In this document: positions 1 to 7,976 of the stretch, piece by piece
Layout of the letters: each line of letters begins with the position of its first letter
How positions within the stretch are numbered: the first letter of the stretch is position 1
Assembly (NCBI GenBank): GCA_048885865.1
Contig: JBHLLF010000027.1
Location: forward strand, 1-35,258
DNA from: Candidatus Hermodarchaeota archaeon
GTDB taxonomy: Archaea; Asgardarchaeota; Thorarchaeia; Thorarchaeales; Thorarchaeaceae
DNA: 35,258 nt
Direction: 5' to 3'
Translations under genes and position numbers: made by a program
The notes under the pieces: generated by a model
Databases searched by the model: none
What the model was told of the DNA's origin: nothing
Seen by the model: the letters and a program-made list of their open reading frames with translations, nothing else

Positions 1-539
1 TCTCGAGCCGCGAATTCCTCAAGTCTCTCTACAAGCCAGCCTCCACTTTGACTTATTATCGCAACGCATCCCCTTCTGGGACGCGCAACACGTTCAGATG
101 GGAGAAAGAATGTGTCTAGCTGGTCCGGCACGAAGACACCGATGCAGTTAGGACCAACCATTGAGATGCCATTGCTGTTAGCAATTTCCACAATCTCATC
201 TTGGAGAGACGCTCCGGACTCTCCAACTTCGCTGAATCCTCCTGAAACCACTATCACAGACTTGATTCCCTTGTCAGCGCATTGTTGTAGAACACTAGGT
301 ACGTATCTCGCCGGGACTGATATCACGACTAGCTCAATGTCATCTGGTGCTTCGCTAATGCTCTTGTAAACCTGTCTTCCTTCTACAAATCCCCCCTTGG
401 GATTTATCGGATATGTAGGGAGGTCGTTCTCGAAAGCGAGCTTCCTAAAGATAACATTTCCCGGCGAAAATGGATTGGATGTTGAAACCCCAACTACAGC
501 TGTGACTTTTGGACTAAGCATTGTCTTGAGACCTGACAT
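1..539 (-). CDS. Acyl/acetyl-CoA synthetase (ADP-forming) alpha-type, N-terminal CoA-binding domain (runs off window)
   Basis: Manual translation from ATG 539: MSGLKTMLSPKVTAVVGVS...YPINPKGG...ELVVISVPARYVPSVLQQCADKGIKSVIVVSGGFSEVG...MVGPNCIG...AIISQSGG, typical AcdA/CoA-binding motifs. Absent from the ORF track because it is truncated. Confidence 0.9.
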   Translation of the reverse strand, partial: MSGLKTMLSPKVTAVVGVSTSNPFSPGNVIFRKLAFENDLPTYPINPKGGFVEGRQVYKSISEAPDDIELVVISVPARYVPSVLQQCADKGIKSVIVVSGGFSEVGESGASLQDEIVEIANSNGISMVGPNCIGVFVPDQLDTFFLPSERVARPRRGCVAIISQSGGWLVERLEEFAAR

Positions 540-614: not shown

Positions 615-1703
615 TCAAGGTTTCATTTGAGCTAGAATCTCTCTTAATCTAGGCTCTGCAAGGATTGCATGCTGAAGTTTAGTCAGGAGTTTGGCAATCT
701 CAGAATAGATTACCTGTCTTGGAGGATCACTAGCAGACTCTGCATTCTGAATTGCTTCCTGGACCTGCTGATTTATCCTCTTGATGATTCGCTTCTCCAG
801 CTCTGGCCCTCCCCAGCCGAATGAATCAAAGCTCGCTTGCGCCTCTCCAATCTTTTCATCCACGTCGAATTCGCTCTCAGTAAGAACATCCACTACGCCG
901 GAAAAATACCTGGCCACAGCGCGTTCAATCCGTTCCATCTCAGAAGGATTCAGATAGTTCTCTTGGGGGCGCTTCTTGGATAGATCTTGAAGAAGTCTTG
1001 CTCCCGGAGCTTCCGTGAGAAGCCCCTTTACAATCTTAACAAGAACTCGGCCTGGAATTTCAATGACATCTCCATAGAATGGCGAGTCAGACCGATACTT
1101 GTGGAGTTCCCGAAGGGTATCAACCCAGAACGTCGGCAGAAGGACATGGCATCTCTTGCTGTATTGTGTGATCATCCTCTGCATCTGCCCTATGAGACCC
1201 CATTCGTCATTCTCAACTTCCACCTTTCGATAAGGCTCTGGGGGCGGTTCCTCCTCTTCCCCTATAAGAGGAATCACGCCGGATTCCTGTGTTGCTGTTG
1301 TCTTTTTGCCGGGTGCTGTTGATGAGGTCTTGGTAGTCGTAGTTGTCGTGACCTTAGCACCATCATCCAATAGGGAGATTATCTCTGCAGCTGGAGCTCC
1401 CTTTGCTTCAGCTTCTTTTGCCCTGGCTGATAGCTTTGGCAAAAGGCTCTCAATCTGGGAAAGCCTCTTGATTATTAGACTAATGATGTTCTGTGTTGAT
1501 GGAGTTATGTTCTTCAGTTCAGTTGCTTCCTCCATCCATCGACGAGTTCTCAGGAGTCCTTGAATCAATGAGTCTACTCTGTCGGGATCAACGGTGCCAT
1601 CTACCTGGGTGCTTAGAAGAAAATGAAGGAGAGTTGAATTCAAAGTCACTATCAAGAGGACTCTATCAAGGAGGTCCTCTGCAATGTTGGTTCCTTCAGT
1701 CAA
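615..1703 (-). CDS. Hypothetical alpha-helical protein (helical N-domain, Thr/Lys-rich and EEEEPPPEP linker, helical C-domain); last gene of tubulin operon
   Basis: 362-aa ORF, 19 nt downstream of the tubulin-like gene on the same strand; low-complexity linker TTTTTTKTSSTAPGKKTTAT. Confidence 0.8.
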   Translation of the reverse strand: MTEGTNIAEDLLDRVLLIVTLNSTLLHFLLSTQVDGTVDPDRVDSLIQGLLRTRRWMEEATELKNITPSTQNIISLIIKRLSQIESLLPKLSARAKEAEAKGAPAAEIISLLDDGAKVTTTTTTKTSSTAPGKKTTATQESGVIPLIGEEEEPPPEPYRKVEVENDEWGLIGQMQRMITQYSKRCHVLLPTFWVDTLRELHKYRSDSPFYGDVIEIPGRVLVKIVKGLLTEAPGARLLQDLSKKRPQENYLNPSEMERIERAVARYFSGVVDVLTESEFDVDEKIGEAQASFDSFGWGGPELEKRIIKRINQQVQEAIQNAESASDPPRQVIYSEIAKLLTKLQHAILAEPRLREILAQMKP

Positions 1704-1722: not shown

Positions 1723-3108
1723 CTACATCGGTTCAGCTGCATCACCAGGTGTCATGTAGTAGGAGAACAGCTCACGGAAGTCAGCAATGGCATCAACAAG
1801 CTCCTTTCTACTTGTTCCCTTCGCGCGCATGAACCACCCCTGCTTGAGTGGTGAAGAACCGCTGTGAAGATTAACGAGTTGCGTTGCCTCGTTGATGATT
1901 TGTACAAGCTCCGGAATCTTTGGCAAACCAAGAAGAACAAGAAGGTTTGTGGTAGGATCTTTGATGTTATATTGAACATAGCATGGAGTGATGGCAGCGC
2001 CAGGTGCAATGAATCCATTGAGTGCTTCCTTAAGGTGCATTCCATATTCTGCTTTGGAGATGTGCCTTGGGCCAGAGAAAACATAGTACACACTCTCTGC
2101 ATTTGGCTCTGCACCTACATCAGCATAGGAGCATTCCTTCACTGCAAAATCCATCATTGTCTTGAGTTGCTTTGGCATGCTGCCTGCATCTGGTATCAAT
2201 CCAACATCTGTGTAGAGTGCTGGAACAACGACAGGGTCAAGCTTTCTTGCATAGTCAGCAAGGTCTGTTGTCGGGAACACATCCTTATGAGGTTCATATA
2301 CTCCTGGTGAGAGCATTGCCTCAACAACATCTAGTGCTAGTGGGTTCACCAACTCAACAAATGCCTGTTCAGTTCGCGCCTCAAGTTCGCCGCCCTCATC
2401 CAGAGTGGATGGTACCATGCTTTCAATTTGGTTGACATTGGCAATATCAATCTCTAGCTCACGTTGAAGATAGTCGACACTGTCAGCTCCTCTTGATTGG
2501 AGGATTCGCTTTAGCATAGTTCTGTTGCTTAGGAGAATTGTAAGGTCTGCTCCGCGTTCTTGGAGCTGTGCTCTGAGAAGACGGGATACAGCCCAGATTG
2601 AGTTCAGAGCCTCACTCGATTGTCCTTCAAATGGCAAAATGCCTACAACGTAAACGAAGATTCGGCGGCCTTCTTCTTCTTGGAATCTCTGCTTTAGCAG
2701 TTCGATTATGGCGGGAGTTCCGCCGCAACCTGTACCACCGCCAAGACTTGTGAAGATGCAGAATCCCGAGACTCCTTCGAATCCTAGGTCTTTGAGCTGT
2801 TCGAAGATGATGTCCTTCGACTCAAGGACGGCATTATATCCGTCCATGAATCTTCCACCAACGCCTATTTCTGATGCACCATAGAGCATCGTATGCTCCT
2901 TGGGGATACCATATTTCTGTCTCACCTTGGTAAGGTCTGCTCTATCAGTGTTCATGAGCAAATAGCCTCTGACTCTGGAAGGCAGTTTCCTATCCTCACT
3001 GGCTTTCAGATAGGAGCCTACAATATTGCTCCCACACTCACCAATCCCAATTGCAAAGACCTCCGCGGCCTTTGTCAGATCATCATCACTCGATGTTCCT
3101 CGTAGCAT
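1723..3108 (-). CDS. Tubulin/FtsZ/CetZ superfamily GTPase, divergent tubulin-like protein
   Basis: T1 GIGECGSNI, T2 NTD, T3 GVGG, T4 signature SLGGGTGCGG, GILPF, LNS, DLTILLSN, T7 TTDLADY, C-terminal H11/H12-like helices. Confidence 0.93.
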   Translation of the reverse strand: MLRGTSSDDDLTKAAEVFAIGIGECGSNIVGSYLKASEDRKLPSRVRGYLLMNTDRADLTKVRQKYGIPKEHTMLYGASEIGVGGRFMDGYNAVLESKDIIFEQLKDLGFEGVSGFCIFTSLGGGTGCGGTPAIIELLKQRFQEEEGRRIFVYVVGILPFEGQSSEALNSIWAVSRLLRAQLQERGADLTILLSNRTMLKRILQSRGADSVDYLQRELEIDIANVNQIESMVPSTLDEGGELEARTEQAFVELVNPLALDVVEAMLSPGVYEPHKDVFPTTDLADYARKLDPVVVPALYTDVGLIPDAGSMPKQLKTMMDFAVKECSYADVGAEPNAESVYYVFSGPRHISKAEYGMHLKEALNGFIAPGAAITPCYVQYNIKDPTTNLLVLLGLPKIPELVQIINEATQLVNLHSGSSPLKQGWFMRAKGTSRKELVDAIADFRELFSYYMTPGDAAEPM

Positions 3109-3127: not shown

Positions 3128-5815
3128 CTAACCTCTCTTTTCTACCATTCTATTGGCAATCTCCCGAATCGCCCAAGTCAGATAGGAACTGATGTCCTCT
3201 CTGCTGTATGTTTCCTTGACCTTCTTGATTGCATCAGTAAGGAATGTTTCACGTTGGTCGGGTGTGCCGGATGGACTGAAACCTGTCATAAAGACCTTCA
3301 TGGACTTGTGCCAGTCATCCATCTTCGCTGCTTTCTCGACCCATTCCAATCGAAGTCCCTTCAGCTCGTTGAAGTTCTGAATAGCATCCTCGAGTACTTT
3401 GGCCTCAGCTAGGTCAGTTTCAAGATTCTTGAGCTTCTGGAGTGGGAATATGAGCTTACTGAAGTCCTTAGGATGCTTATTGTAGACTGCTTCGATGGTT
3501 GAATAATACTCCGACTGCTTCTTAATCTCTTCTTGATGTGATTCTCCATCCTTGGTTGCGATTCCCTTTATGACCTGCAACATTTCATCTTGGATGTTTG
3601 CCAACGTCAAACACACATCAAGCACTTCGAAGATGTGCTTTGAGTCCTTGGCGAGTTGATCTGGAACCTGTTCCAGCAGTCCTTTTAGACGACCAACAAA
3701 GTCAGACATCCCTTGTTCCTCAAAGATAGATACGGCACCTTGAATCTGGCGATACGCCTCTTCTGCACGAGTCTTGATCTTCTTGTGCACATCTGGTGAT
3801 GTGGTTAGACCCATGAGCTGGTCAAACGAATCAGCTGCAGATTCTAGTTCTTCTGGAGGAGTTTCCCGCAATTTCTTCAGCAACTTGAGCTCATCTTTGA
3901 CTGGGACTCCAATCGCGTCTGCTTGATCGAATGATTTCTGAAGCTTGGCAACCTCTTCCTTCAATGACTCAATGACTTCCGCACTAATCTTGTGTTCATA
4001 GAGCTCAATCATTTTACGAGCAATCGCAGGAAGACTGAAGACTGTGTCAGCAGCCACACCGATGCTATTGAGTTCACCGATGGCTTCTTGGGCTTCCTTG
4101 GGAATCTCAACGCCAGCTCCCATAAGCTTTGCAGCAGCAAGTCGAATCTTGACTCCAAGCCTGTAACGAAGATTCTCCAATGACTCTTGTGCCTTGACAA
4201 GAATTGTGTCCTTGATTGTTCTCATCTCAGACCTGATTTCTCCGAACTCATCCAGTTTCTCTATTCTCATGGATCCTTCATCAAGTTCAGTAATGATTGG
4301 CATGAAAATCTCCGCATATGCAGGCTTGATTGTCTGAAGGTCCTCAACAATGACTTCGATCTCCTGCTTGCAAGCATCTCGGAATGTAGCAACTCCATCT
4401 TCAACAGCTACGCGAAGACTTGCCAATGATTGGAGCAGATAGACTATGCCTCCCTCAAGGTCTTCGACTTTCGGCGCTTTCTTACTAAGCTGGGCGTAAT
4501 CCAAAACTCGATCTGCTGAAGTGGCAAGTTCATTGAATCTTGTTATGTAGCTTCGAATGGTATCTGTCAGGTTCTTTCGGTACTCTTCACGCATACCATT
4601 TGCTTTCACGTAAGTTGCAACCATGCTGTCAATCTCTGGCTTCTTCAAGGTCTTCTTTGCATCAGCAATCCATTTCCTTACTTCGACGACATCCTTGATG
4701 CCAGTGTCGTCTGGAGCATCTGCGGCTTTCTCAAGTTCCTCCAGCACTTCTTCAACATGGTCCTTCAATGAAATCTTGACTTGAGATTCCCATTCAACCA
4801 TCTTCTGATAGCCTGATAATTGACTGGCAACATCTTCAGATTCCACTCCTACTATGGGCGCTTCAGGGATGATTGCTGCAGTGACAGGAATGCCTCCTTC
4901 AACTATCTTGGAAGTGACTTCGTGCTTCATATTGATGATTCTGTCCCTGAGAAGATTTGACATCTTCACCTTTGCAGAGTGAAGCTGATTCTCCAAGGCA
5001 ATGAGAGAGGTCAGATTGGTTGTCTTCGATGAATCCCTCGCGATAATTCTGAGTTGCTGGCCGAAGTCCATTGGCAATTCTAGACCCAATCTGGAGGCTG
5101 TTTCAACGGATGCCTGCAATGACTCTACCTCTGTTATCAAGGCGGTTCCAATCATCTTGCTAACTTCGTCTTTTCGCCCATCCAGGTATGTCCGTTCAGC
5201 TTGAAGTTTATCTGATAGCCCGATGATATCCCCGACTGGTAGTTGGGCTACTTCTTCATATGACAAAGTGGCGGCAACTTCGCCCCGGTCGATGGTGATG
5301 TGTCTCTCATAGGTTTCAACAATTCTCTTGCTTTCATCTAGAAATTCTTTGACTTCCTTGGCAAGATCGTGATGGACACCCAGTGTGAGCTTAGAGAAAT
5401 TCTTGGCAAAAGTAAGGAGCGTTTCTAGGTCTTTCGCATCCCCAGTTCCAGTTGATGGAAAAGTCAACACACTGATTGCTTTCGCCTCATTTGGTTTCTG
5501 TGCTTGAAGCTTTGGAAGAACTGCAGCTGTTTCTCTATGCTCCTTTCGCAGCAAGTCTGAGAAATCCCTGACCGCTCTCATGAAGTCCTCTTCGAGAGCA
5601 TTTTTGGTCGTTTCCATCTGTGACACTAACTTTCTCTTTTTCATGAAACCTGCTGAACCTGCATCACTCTCGAACTTTGCGAACTTCGCCAGTGTGTCGT
5701 ACAAATGGCGCACGGTCCTGTCAGTCTGGTCCTCAAGAGATTTGTTGAGCTGAATCAACAATCCTTTTATTTCAGCGACCTTGTCGATTTCGCGTCTCCA
5801 TGCGTGACTATCCAA
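3128..5815 (-). CDS. Large alpha-helical / coiled-coil repeat protein; first gene of tubulin operon
   Basis: 895-aa E/K/L/A-rich ORF with TTG start preceded by GGAGGT; ends 19 nt before the tubulin-like gene; no Walker motifs. Confidence 0.88.
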   Translation of the reverse strand: MDSHAWRREIDKVAEIKGLLIQLNKSLEDQTDRTVRHLYDTLAKFAKFESDAGSAGFMKKRKLVSQMETTKNALEEDFMRAVRDFSDLLRKEHRETAAVLPKLQAQKPNEAKAISVLTFPSTGTGDAKDLETLLTFAKNFSKLTLGVHHDLAKEVKEFLDESKRIVETYERHITIDRGEVAATLSYEEVAQLPVGDIIGLSDKLQAERTYLDGRKDEVSKMIGTALITEVESLQASVETASRLGLELPMDFGQQLRIIARDSSKTTNLTSLIALENQLHSAKVKMSNLLRDRIINMKHEVTSKIVEGGIPVTAAIIPEAPIVGVESEDVASQLSGYQKMVEWESQVKISLKDHVEEVLEELEKAADAPDDTGIKDVVEVRKWIADAKKTLKKPEIDSMVATYVKANGMREEYRKNLTDTIRSYITRFNELATSADRVLDYAQLSKKAPKVEDLEGGIVYLLQSLASLRVAVEDGVATFRDACKQEIEVIVEDLQTIKPAYAEIFMPIITELDEGSMRIEKLDEFGEIRSEMRTIKDTILVKAQESLENLRYRLGVKIRLAAAKLMGAGVEIPKEAQEAIGELNSIGVAADTVFSLPAIARKMIELYEHKISAEVIESLKEEVAKLQKSFDQADAIGVPVKDELKLLKKLRETPPEELESAADSFDQLMGLTTSPDVHKKIKTRAEEAYRQIQGAVSIFEEQGMSDFVGRLKGLLEQVPDQLAKDSKHIFEVLDVCLTLANIQDEMLQVIKGIATKDGESHQEEIKKQSEYYSTIEAVYNKHPKDFSKLIFPLQKLKNLETDLAEAKVLEDAIQNFNELKGLRLEWVEKAAKMDDWHKSMKVFMTGFSPSGTPDQRETFLTDAIKKVKETYSREDISSYLTWAIREIANRMVEKRG

Positions 5816-6017: not shown

Positions 6018-7976
6018 ATGCCCATCTCTGCAGGAGGCAGCAAAGGTGAGGCTTTACCACTTGGTCATGAAGTCATTGCCGTCTTAGAGGCGGATGCAGT
6101 TCATATTGTTCATGATGAGAGGTTTCTATACGCTGCCTGTAGAGACCTGAAGGTAAGAGTCTGGTCAAAGGAAGACTGGCAACTGGTAGCGGAGCTTGGC
6201 GAAACTAGTACAGAGCCGCTTGTTGTTCATGTCGATGAAGACAGAGTCTATGCTACATGCGAACGCCGTGTATATGTCTGGAAGAAAGAAACATGGGGCA
6301 TGACCGGATGGTTTGAACTGACATATCATGCTATAACATCCACCCTCCAAGGTGACAGCTTCTATGTCGGTGCACGTGATGGAAGGCTGGTTTCCATAAA
6401 GAAAGACACTCACGAGACCTCGAGTTGGCAGCTTCACAAGTCTGACATTTCAACGCTATGGTCAGACGATAGGGTCATACTTACTGGAGGTCGGAAGGAA
6501 GAGCCTAGAGTTTGGCTTCATGAACCCAATAAGGCACCCACAGAGCTAGCAAGACTCGATAAGAAGATTCGTCCTACTGTTTTTGTTGGGAATTCTGAAT
6601 TCGTGATTATAGGGTCTGAATCTGGGGAGATAGGCATATGGGATCGAGTTGAATGGCAGCTCATTCGCACACTTCAAGATAAGTCCTCGAACCCCGTTGT
6701 TTCCATGTGGTCAAACAGCTCCTATCTAGTCGCCGTAATGAACTCAGGGCTCATCACGGTCTGGGATCTAACTAGAGGAAATGAGATGGGCCGATTCCTA
6801 ATTGAGAATTACAAGATAGGATACATCGAAGCAGACAAACTTCACGTATATGCAGTGGGAGCTGATGGAATCCTCGTTCTCTCTCTGACTATTGGCGAGG
6901 TTCCGCTTGATCTAAGTATGTCAAGCGAGTCGCGATATGGAATTAACCTTCTTAGAACCTCTCCCTATGATGTCTTAGAATCTGTGCTAGTATTTCAGAG
7001 ACAAGGAGATGGATACTTCGATGAGGGAAATCATCAAGAAGCAGTTGCCTCCTATGAGAAAGCACTCCAATACCTGATAGATAATACGCATGCACTGCTG
7101 GAGGTACCGGAAGAGCGTCAACAATTAACGGAAGAGCTCAATGAACGACTTGGTCGCTCTCTCCTAAAGTCCAAGATTCAAGAGCTTGGGATACTAACTG
7201 AGAGAATCAGCGAGATATCTGCGCAGGTTGAGCCGGGTACGCATGTTCGTCTCCAAGATGAAATGATTGACAAGCTTTGGGATGAAACTGCCAGAGCTAT
7301 CAAAGAGAGTCGGGTCTTATCCGATGCACAGGCCGGCGATATTCTGAGTTACCAGCTAACTGATGTTGCTGACACCTTGGAAGCCGAATTGAAGGAAGCA
7401 ATGGCAAACGTAAATGAATACAGAGAAACGGTCAATCAAGCACTGACTTTGACTCATGGAATCATGAATGAATGGCGTTGGATGGAGAGAAAGAAGACCA
7501 GTCTGAATGAGCGAAAAGCATTCCTGGAGGATGCTATGGCGAAAATAAGTGACAGACTAAAGCAAGCAGAGCCTGGAAGCGAAGTGGAGTCAATTCTCAG
7601 TGACGCTCTTGAAGAACACAGACAAATATACTCGCAAATCTGCCGGATTATTGAAGCTACTGAAACCGATCCAGTGGATGAGCTTGTCAGCAAAGAGGAA
7701 GCTATGGCAGCTATCGAGGGCCTATTACGAGTGCTCCCCAAACGCAAAGACGCTATTGCTGAAATGACGGATCCAGAAGAACAGAAAGTCGAGACAGAGC
7801 GCCTTCAGGGAGCATTGAGGCAGGCGCTTGAGTCAGCTAAGAAGTTCAAGATGAAGGACCAGCAAAAGACCATCCAGGAGCTAATAGATGGAATTGAACC
7901 TCCTAAGCCAAAGAAGCGGAGAAAATCAAGTAGGAAGAAGAAAGCTGAAGCGACTACGAATGAAAACACTAGCTAG
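6018..7976 (+). CDS. WD40-like beta-propeller + MIT/TPR-like helical domain + coiled coil, basic C-terminal tail
   Basis: Repeats DLKVRVWS, RRVYVWK, HKSDISTLWSD, SGEIGIWD, SGLITVWD in aa ~15-290; then DEGNHQEAVASYEKALQYL; long helical region; tail PKPKKRRKSSRKKK. Confidence 0.85.
   Translation: MPISAGGSKGEALPLGHEVIAVLEADAVHIVHDERFLYAACRDLKVRVWSKEDWQLVAELGETSTEPLVVHVDEDRVYATCERRVYVWKKETWGMTGWFELTYHAITSTLQGDSFYVGARDGRLVSIKKDTHETSSWQLHKSDISTLWSDDRVILTGGRKEEPRVWLHEPNKAPTELARLDKKIRPTVFVGNSEFVIIGSESGEIGIWDRVEWQLIRTLQDKSSNPVVSMWSNSSYLVAVMNSGLITVWDLTRGNEMGRFLIENYKIGYIEADKLHVYAVGADGILVLSLTIGEVPLDLSMSSESRYGINLLRTSPYDVLESVLVFQRQGDGYFDEGNHQEAVASYEKALQYLIDNTHALLEVPEERQQLTEELNERLGRSLLKSKIQELGILTERISEISAQVEPGTHVRLQDEMIDKLWDETARAIKESRVLSDAQAGDILSYQLTDVADTLEAELKEAMANVNEYRETVNQALTLTHGIMNEWRWMERKKTSLNERKAFLEDAMAKISDRLKQAEPGSEVESILSDALEEHRQIYSQICRIIEATETDPVDELVSKEEAMAAIEGLLRVLPKRKDAIAEMTDPEEQKVETERLQGALRQALESAKKFKMKDQQKTIQELIDGIEPPKPKKRRKSSRKKKAEATTNENTS

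Follow-up and report, generated by a model that had tools for sequence, protein, structure and literature searches.

The locus and the Asg.Tub gene

The window analysed here, meaning the whole stretch of 35,258 nucleotides (GenBank assembly GCA_048885865.1 from a Candidatus Hermodarchaeota archaeon, contig JBHLLF010000027.1, positions 1 to 35,258 of the forward strand), contains an open reading frame (ORF) for a tubulin-superfamily GTPase of 461 amino acids (aa) on the minus strand (1723..3108; stop codon at 1723-1725). Judged by its sequence, the protein is an ordinary, intact member of Asg.Tub, a family already named by Santana-Molina, del Saz-Navarro & Devos in 2023 as a 'CetZ-like group in Asgardarchaeota' (PMC9871819). 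Its gene is the middle one of a three-gene operon. Upstream, across a gap of 19 nt, is the gene for an 895-aa helical protein (3128..5815, minus strand). Downstream, again after 19 nt, is the gene for a 362-aa helical protein (615..1703, minus strand) with a conserved C-terminal domain at approximately residues 166-362. Neither of these flanking proteins matched any Pfam or NCBIfam family at the curated cut-off.

The N-terminal GTP-binding domain (residues 16-200; 2509..3063, minus strand) matches the Tubulin/FtsZ GTPase family PF00091 over profile positions 1-187 of 190 (E 2.2e-20). In an alignment of 30 homologues, mean column identity is 60% and every nucleotide loop is invariant: T1 (GECGSN), T2 (NTD), T3 (GVGG), T4 (GGGTGCGG, which contains an invariant Cys) and T5 (QSSEALN). 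The T7 loop, PTTDLAD (residues 279-285; 2254..2274, minus strand), carries two aspartates, D282 and D285, both invariant in the same 30 members. In a MAFFT comparison of 15 representatives of the superfamily groups, these residues share columns with FtsZ NLDYAD, CetZ VDASE and tubulin LDLGK/TDMKE, and the acids also align with the catalytic Glu found in CetZ and in alpha-tubulin. At the level of sequence, then, the protein has an intact GTP-binding domain, conserved T7 acids and a CetZ-like core. A first-pass annotation of the same DNA had listed GECGSNI (T1), NTD, GVGG (T3) and DLAD (T7, here TTDLAD), all of which are there and are invariant or nearly so. It had also described T1 as tubulin-like, but GQCG or GQAG loops are found in CetZ as well.

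An insert between H6 and H7 (approximately residues 205-245; 2374..2496, minus strand) is specific to the family. It is predicted with low confidence (predicted local distance difference test, pLDDT, 49-74), varies in length and sequence within Asg.Tub, and is missing in the MAFFT comparison from CetZ, FtsZ, tubulins and P0127, a distant relative described below. The same comparison shows that the H1-S2 insert, which is long in tubulins, is absent from Asg.Tub, CetZ and FtsZ. In the Pfam scan, the 461-aa protein had no match to Tubulin_C (PF03953) at E<=1 and no listed match to FtsZ_C. It also scored far below the FtsZ equivalog TIGR00065 (34.1 bits, cut-off 295.2). The source genome (3.58 Mb, 117 contigs, 87% complete) encodes two stronger PF00091 matches on other contigs. 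As these two proteins group with FtsZ in the tree presented below, the Asg.Tub gene is a third, separate member of the superfamily; the other two are taken to be FtsZ1 and FtsZ2.

In the study that named the family (PMC9871819), the placement of Asg.Tub was unstable between CetZ and tubulins, and indels and rooting were used to judge it closer to CetZ. Unknown coiled-coil genes were reported as its neighbours. The model in that study was built from four sequences, and the tail matched no other family, with only 'limited similarity to CetZ' being noted. Two links tie the present protein to the published family. The Asg.Tub-C alignment includes Thorarchaeote SMTZ1-83 KXH77455.1, whose last ~240 residues differ little from those of the 461-aa protein, and a Heimdall LC-3 protein is common to that alignment and to our list of homologues. 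The present analysis, which uses 30 sequences and combines a predicted structure with profile-profile comparison, indicates an H11-H12 hairpin. The 'CetZ-related Asgard archaeal clade' that serves as an outgroup in a 2026 preprint (10.64898/2026.02.15.705738) is probably also Asg.Tub. No report of bench work on Asg.Tub (purification, imaging) was found in the literature searched.

Homologues are 437-479 aa long. Those from Thorarchaeota bins are 83-96% identical to the 461-aa protein, and identity falls overall to ~50%. Other homologues come from bins of Promethearchaeota, Hodarchaeales, Heimdallarchaeota, Hermodarchaeota and Asgardarchaeia, and all homologues with a source name are from Asgard bins. 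In a profile search of 1.84 billion representatives, Asg.Tub was matched by two full-length clusters and fragments. The next full-length match was P0127 (E 3e-40), a distant relative that stands alone, and further matches were at E 1e-16 or worse and chiefly covered the N-terminal domain. The two clusters and the steep drop in score indicate that Asg.Tub is a tight, isolated family. It occurs in 126 of 400 Asgard species genomes, concentrated in nine genome families: 75 of 85 genomes in the window's own family, 21 of 22 in a second (often with two copies), then 15 of 19, 5 of 5, 4 of 4, 2 of 2 and three singletons. Asg.Tub is missing from the remaining genome families among the 400 genomes, including one family of 135.

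P0127 (L020:8001-9374, 457 aa, from a Logan run; also P0138) is a distant sister of Asg.Tub. Its gene comes just after those for SMC, ScpA and dihydroorotate dehydrogenase, and next in line is an unknown gene of 262 aa. We did not count P0127 as a member of the family because it has neither the upstream giant partner nor the H6-H7 insert.

The C-terminal helices

An AlphaFold2 model of the 461-aa protein, built on the 30-sequence alignment (pLDDT 83.5; predicted template modelling score, pTM, 0.85), places the last strand at residues 388-394, followed by helices at 399-414, 420-429 and 434-449 (pLDDT 76-91) and then a disordered tail. The first of these is predicted helix H11 (residues 399-414; 1867..1914, minus strand; pLDDT 85-91). 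The second, at 420-429, is a predicted short helix H11', which together with a basic loop spans residues 420-433 (1810..1851, minus strand) and has the pattern LKxxWFxRSKG. The third is predicted helix H12 (residues 434-449; 1762..1809, minus strand; pLDDT 76-91), with the pattern E-L-x-x-A-x-x-D-x-x-x-L-F. The remaining C-terminal tail (residues 450-461; 1726..1761, minus strand) is short, variable and mostly disordered (pLDDT <50 at 453-461). Across the family this tail is 1-17 aa long with a mean net charge of -0.8; a long acidic tail as in eukaryotes is lacking. On the basis of the model, we predict that the C-terminal part of the protein has H11, H11' and H12 arranged as they are in tubulin. 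This is the segment singled out by the first-pass annotation, and the protein sequence is as it had quoted: window positions 1753-1920 (minus strand) translate to KIPELVQIINEATQLV...GWFMRAKGTSRKELVDAIADFRELFSYYM, which are residues 397-452.

CetZ has a tubulin-like H11, as the alignment ranges obtained here also indicate. Predicted H11 aligns with the final ordered helix of CetZ2 (4b45), CetZ1 (4b46) and M. thermophila CetZ (3zid), and the VIA-align alignments with these structures end at model residues 417, 413 and 423, respectively. The CetZ alignments have Z-scores of 34.6-35.2 over 323-327 residues (CetZ2: Z 35.2, 327 aligned, model 15-417; M. thermophila CetZ: Z 34.6). Z-scores for true tubulins (OdinTubulin 7evl, AtubA/B 9f6t, BtubA/B 2btq and alpha/beta) are in the same range (33.7-35.3), but the alignments extend into the C-terminal helices. 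OdinTubulin aligned over 367 residues (Z 35.3, model 15-458 on chain 4-425), beta-tubulin aligned from model residue 15 to 461 (chain 2-441, Z 34.3), and AtubB had a Z-score of 33.7. The alignments with OdinTubulin, BtubA/B, AtubB and beta-tubulin reach model residues 454-461, whereas the solved CetZ chains end after H11. Because VIA-align reports just the end residues of each alignment, how H12 superposes is read from these ranges together with the aligned lengths. By Foldseek, CetZ and tubulins tie at ~1e-18; the top match is CetZ 4b46, and target template modelling scores (TM-scores) are 0.80-0.82 for CetZ vs 0.64-0.72 for tubulins. The H11/H12 tail proposed in the first-pass annotation is thus borne out as a prediction: AlphaFold2 places helices there, in a region where solved CetZ structures have no ordered residues and FtsZ has no such helices.

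We used profile-profile comparison to look at the same region, with the last 67 residues of Asg.Tub as the query and a tubulin profile built from 11 true tubulins from Asgard genomes. The best local match in hhalign placed tail residues 424-458 on tubulin 393-426 (H11'-loop-H12) with a score of 28.2 (P 7e-4). None of 200 column-shuffled controls reached this score (mean 13.2, standard deviation 2.4, maximum 25.5), and the reversed segment scored 11.7. The MAFFT alignment of the 15 representatives has the same H11'-H12 register. The in-register likeness to tubulin that had earlier been drawn by eye therefore goes beyond chance for a single positional comparison (P 7e-4; 0 of 200 shuffles), though the signal is weak in absolute terms. 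Against the CetZ profile, the tail query matched through H11 only (395-415 on 343-363, P 0.022). For a small group that includes proteins labelled Korarchaeota and Thermoproteota, the match reached H12 (P 0.001).

The tail is strongly conserved within Asg.Tub, with 10 invariant and 10 near-invariant positions per 67. Among the 30 members, W425, F426, K430, G431, L437, A440, D443, L447 and F448 are invariant or near-invariant, the first four of them invariant. H11' aligns to the 'HW[FY]..G' segment of tubulin, and the pattern W-[FY]...G...E-[LF]..A......L is shared in register across H11'-H12. The weight of the tail evidence comes from position, predicted structure and strong conservation all agreeing. 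The tail is a real, conserved feature of Asg.Tub, and its tubulin-style fold is a prediction.

Place in the superfamily

Full-length profile comparison with hhalign ranked a group of ~410-aa euryarchaeal proteins first (2.6e-29, residues 19-445) and CetZ second (2.1e-28, residues 17-417), followed by the Korarchaeota-containing small group (1.4e-23), FtsZ (4.9e-20) and true tubulin (4.5e-11). By this measure, taken over its whole length, the 461-aa protein resembles CetZ-like proteins far more than it does true tubulins. The first-pass annotation had called it an intermediate-grade tubulin, a description that fits poorly with a tubulin profile score that ranks last, no Tubulin_C match and no H1-S2 insert. 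FtsZ is like Asg.Tub in its GTPase domain and D-x-x-D-type T7, and its hhalign alignment covers residues 10-407; however, that alignment ends before the C-terminal helices, and the linker and C-terminal peptide of FtsZ are not seen in Asg.Tub. A few remote relatives bear Bathyarchaeota, Korarchaeota or Thermoproteota labels, and in an NCBIfam scan the remote relatives had only weak matches to FtsZ models.

A tree of 78 sequences was inferred with FtsZ as outgroup (IQ-TREE quick search, LG+C20 with posterior mean site frequencies, PMSF; no identified Thermococcales sequence in the sample). Asg.Tub falls outside a CetZ-dominated clade, which has a Shimodaira-Hasegawa-like approximate likelihood ratio test (SH-aLRT) support of 92 and contains a core of canonical CetZ (95) anchored by a CetZ1 orthologue (E 3e-113 to 4b46). 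A second clade (SH-aLRT 92) holds the Korarchaeota-containing group, the euryarchaeal group, true tubulins and Asg.Tub, and the relations inside it are not resolved. True tubulins form a clade of their own (SH-aLRT 100) that leaves out Asg.Tub. Forcing Asg.Tub together with CetZ cost 38.1 log-likelihood (lnL) units and was rejected by the approximately unbiased (AU) test (p-AU 0.024), while forcing it together with tubulin cost 14.9 lnL units (p-AU 0.108), so that a sister relation to tubulin was not rejected. According to the first-pass annotation, nesting inside CetZ or FtsZ would have counted against its proposal; the tree places Asg.Tub in neither, and the AU test rejected its grouping with CetZ. 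The CetZ clade has been described as bounded by Thermococcales CetZs (Brown & Duggin 2023, PMC9856176), and the same paper describes CetZ-specific residues as clustering around the GTP/GDP pocket.

These results bear on whether Asg.Tub is simply a divergent CetZ, that is, a cell-shape protein whose C-terminus is a longer CetZ H11 plus a tail. CetZ (H. volcanii CetZ1/CetZ2, 4b46/4b45; Methanosaeta thermophila, 3zid) is the closest solved relative by sequence, with 4b46 (3e-9) and 3zid (5e-6) as the top PDB matches. It shares with Asg.Tub a GQCG-type T1 loop, the lack of an H1-S2 insert and the C-terminal helix H11, and both the Foldseek ranking and the full-length hhalign score are in keeping with such a relationship. 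Furthermore, the annotation of one Heimdall homologue reads 'Tubulin-like protein CetZ', and the literature label for the family is CetZ-like or CetZ-related. However, the canonical CetZ clade excludes Asg.Tub, at the cost given above when the two are forced together, and both the hhalign and the structural alignments to CetZ end past H11. Asg.Tub also has its own H6-H7 insert, an Asgard-only distribution and a fixed pair of partner genes, and CetZ and CetZ-like groups have unrelated genomic contexts (PMC9871819). We regard a divergent CetZ as quite improbable.

The ~410-aa euryarchaeal group, a non-canonical part of the tubulin superfamily, bears directly on the origin of the hairpin. Its hosts are Halobacteria, Methanosarcinales/ANME-2, Methanoperedens and Hydrothermarchaeota (alignment A3; loci L021-L100, e.g. 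L021, L024, L047 and L081). The AlphaFold2 model of this group (pLDDT 87.7) has helices at 356-375 and 391-409 past the last strand. All of its top 50 structural matches are tubulins (Z 37.5-39.2) and none is a CetZ; the best match, OdinTubulin (Z 39.2, 367 aligned), reaches the very last residue. Like Asg.Tub, the group lies in the second large clade of the tree, and it is the best full-length profile match to Asg.Tub with H12 included. Unlike Asg.Tub, it has no H6-H7 insert, no WF motif in H11' and euryarchaeal hosts, and its tail matches the Asg.Tub tail only weakly (P 0.022-0.31). The Korarchaeota/Thermoproteota-containing small group also aligns through H12 in hhalign. Since the same hairpin is predicted in a euryarchaeal family, it is probably ancestral in archaea and an old trait of the CetZ/tubulin part of the superfamily. 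The label 'eukaryote-type' that the first-pass annotation had attached to these helices does not survive the comparison, which is a warning against reading the hairpin as a eukaryotic signature. On the simplest reading, H11 and a flexible tail are what canonical CetZ has retained, without an ordered hairpin.

It should be noted that the euryarchaeal group is not the 'Halo.Tub' of PMC9871819. This identity was ruled out, as Halo.Tub proteins are 540-630 aa long and have other C-terminal motifs. One copy of the ~410-aa group sits on a Natrinema plasmid. The model of this group fits true tubulins better than the Asg.Tub model does.

Asg.Tub could instead be a true proto-tubulin, the closest archaeal sister of tubulin, with H11/H12 as a derived character shared on the way to eukaryotic tubulin. 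The tree has Asg.Tub in the clade that holds tubulin and not with CetZ (SH-aLRT 92), the AU test rejected the grouping with CetZ and not that with tubulin, and the top local profile match of the tail is tubulin H11'-H12. Some trees in PMC9871819 also put Asg.Tub between CetZ and tubulins. However, non-rejection in an AU test is not support, and two other members of the same unresolved clade, the euryarchaeal group and the Korarchaeota-containing one, share this hairpin. The full-length tubulin score is far weaker than those of CetZ, the euryarchaeal group and even FtsZ, and the Tubulin_C match and H1-S2 insert are lacking. True tubulins are found in other Asgard lineages, and PMC9871819 judged Asg.Tub closer to CetZ from indels and rooting. 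Overall, we think a proto-tubulin unlikely. A related and more specific idea, which we likewise hold to be unlikely, is that Asg.Tub is the nearest surviving archaeal sister of tubulin and represents a pre-microtubule stage: a CetZ-sized GTPase that had its ridge and helical partners before the tubulin inserts and before the alpha/beta split. If this were true, the partner-binding face of microtubules would be older than microtubules, and the operon could reveal what the first partners of that face were.

A search of the whole genomes for Tubulin_C found none in the source genome, and 8 other Asgard genomes (four families) scored above the cut-off. No genome family among the 400 holds both Asg.Tub and a true tubulin. 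Functional replacement was considered as an explanation for this complementary distribution and set aside, as four misses for four tubulin families would arise by chance with a probability of ~0.3 (a rough estimate). In L010-L015, each Odin-type tubulin gene is beside a same-strand ORF of ~443-448 aa, and these ORFs resemble one another at the N-terminus; a hypothetical neighbour of the OdinTubulin gene is noted in PMC9871819.

A proposed role for Asg.Tub and its operon partners

Taking the evidence together, we consider it probable that Asg.Tub is a GTPase that forms a homopolymer, with an old hairpin that makes up a predicted outer ridge on which operon partners dock. The protein would bind GTP and polymerise head-to-tail as a homopolymer, with the T7 aspartates of one subunit completing the GTPase site of the next. 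The resulting filament would be separate from the cell-division FtsZ1/FtsZ2 of the same genome. In such a filament the H11/H12 ridge, including the invariant, basic WF-x-RSKG loop, would be exposed on the outer face, where its most likely role would be as a docking site for one or both of the helical proteins co-inherited in the operon.

The T7 loop has both Asp residues invariant in an arrangement like N-x-D-x-x-D of FtsZ, which fits a homopolymer in which every subunit is able to activate its neighbour. Compared with true tubulins, both acids are carried by one protein, so no alpha/beta division of labour is implied. The function of T7 in FtsZ and tubulin is established and underlies this part of the proposal. 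A self-activating homopolymer had also been suggested in the first-pass annotation, and with D282 and D285 both kept in the sequence this suggestion is plausible.

Inheritance of the two partner genes follows that of Asg.Tub. A Heimdall-type locus and a different Asgard lineage have the same three-gene order, with flanking homologues at 20-29% identity. Among the 400 Asgard genomes, the profiles of the two partners match 123 and 129. Both partners are confined to exactly the nine genome families that have Asg.Tub, and they are adjacent to it where coordinates were compared. A complex prediction for Asg.Tub and the 362-aa protein (from alignments, with no controls) gave scores of 0.00 and 0.30, compared to a mark of 0.32. 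Many genomes of one Asgard family (G057, G061, G067, G068, G072-G074 and G077) have a second, more divergent Asg.Tub of ~445-452 aa. In several of them, this second copy adjoins its own copy of the giant protein, of ~1143 aa (e.g. G067:C1:2897425-2900706); for the 362-aa partner, each genome yielded only a single copy.

Several points weigh against the partner-docking homopolymer proposed here. What is said of polymerisation, GTPase activity and partner binding is inference. The tree is a quick-search tree with long branches and SH-aLRT values of 87-92 on its key branches, and the groups used in the AU test were named only after the tree had been inspected. The H11'-loop has a mean net charge of +2.9 in Asg.Tub and -0.8 in Asgard tubulins, which sets its surface chemistry and any partners apart from those of tubulin. 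The sequence signal for H12 is weak, with an hhalign probability of 26% for the tail against tubulin. Furthermore, a PDB-wide hmmsearch with the 67-residue tail profile returned no tubulins at E<=10. Its top hits were proteasome alpha-5 (E 0.027) and the Fe-hydrogenase small subunit, both chance matches, so the tail similarity is invisible to profile-sequence search. Finally, AlphaFold2 was trained on many tubulins and could impose a tubulin topology on the C-terminal helices.

The low hhalign probability and the PDB-wide search also speak for another reading, in which the tail is a generic helix-loop-helix that AlphaFold2 has laid out in tubulin fashion, joined to a chance sequence match. The 'hWF...AV..L' patterns in proteasome alpha-5 and Fe-hydrogenase are indeed of similar quality. 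However, few parts of the protein are as conserved as the tail, which argues for a packed, functional element, and pLDDT is 85-91 across most of it. The profile match falls at the exact topologically equivalent place and above all 200 shuffles, and in two further archaeal families the alignment runs through these helices as well. We therefore regard such an artefact as very improbable and retain the homopolymer with a partner-docking outer ridge as the preferred reading. Asg.Tub has a wide distribution across the Thor-, Hod-, Heimdall- and related lineages, with strong conservation. If the ridge is real and binds partners, the family would offer a simple homopolymeric system for learning how filament-associated proteins came to read that surface.

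Two further genes flank the operon in the window. A gene of the CoA-binding / ADP-forming acyl-CoA ligase type follows the operon at positions 3-539 (minus strand), and a gene of the same type follows it in a distant Asgard locus (L006:10684-12102). Its presence after the operon in both loci suggests some wider conservation of gene order. On the other side, a divergently oriented gene encodes a protein of 652 aa (6018-7976, plus strand). As no counterpart is listed beside the operon in L004 or L006, this gene is probably outside the conserved module.

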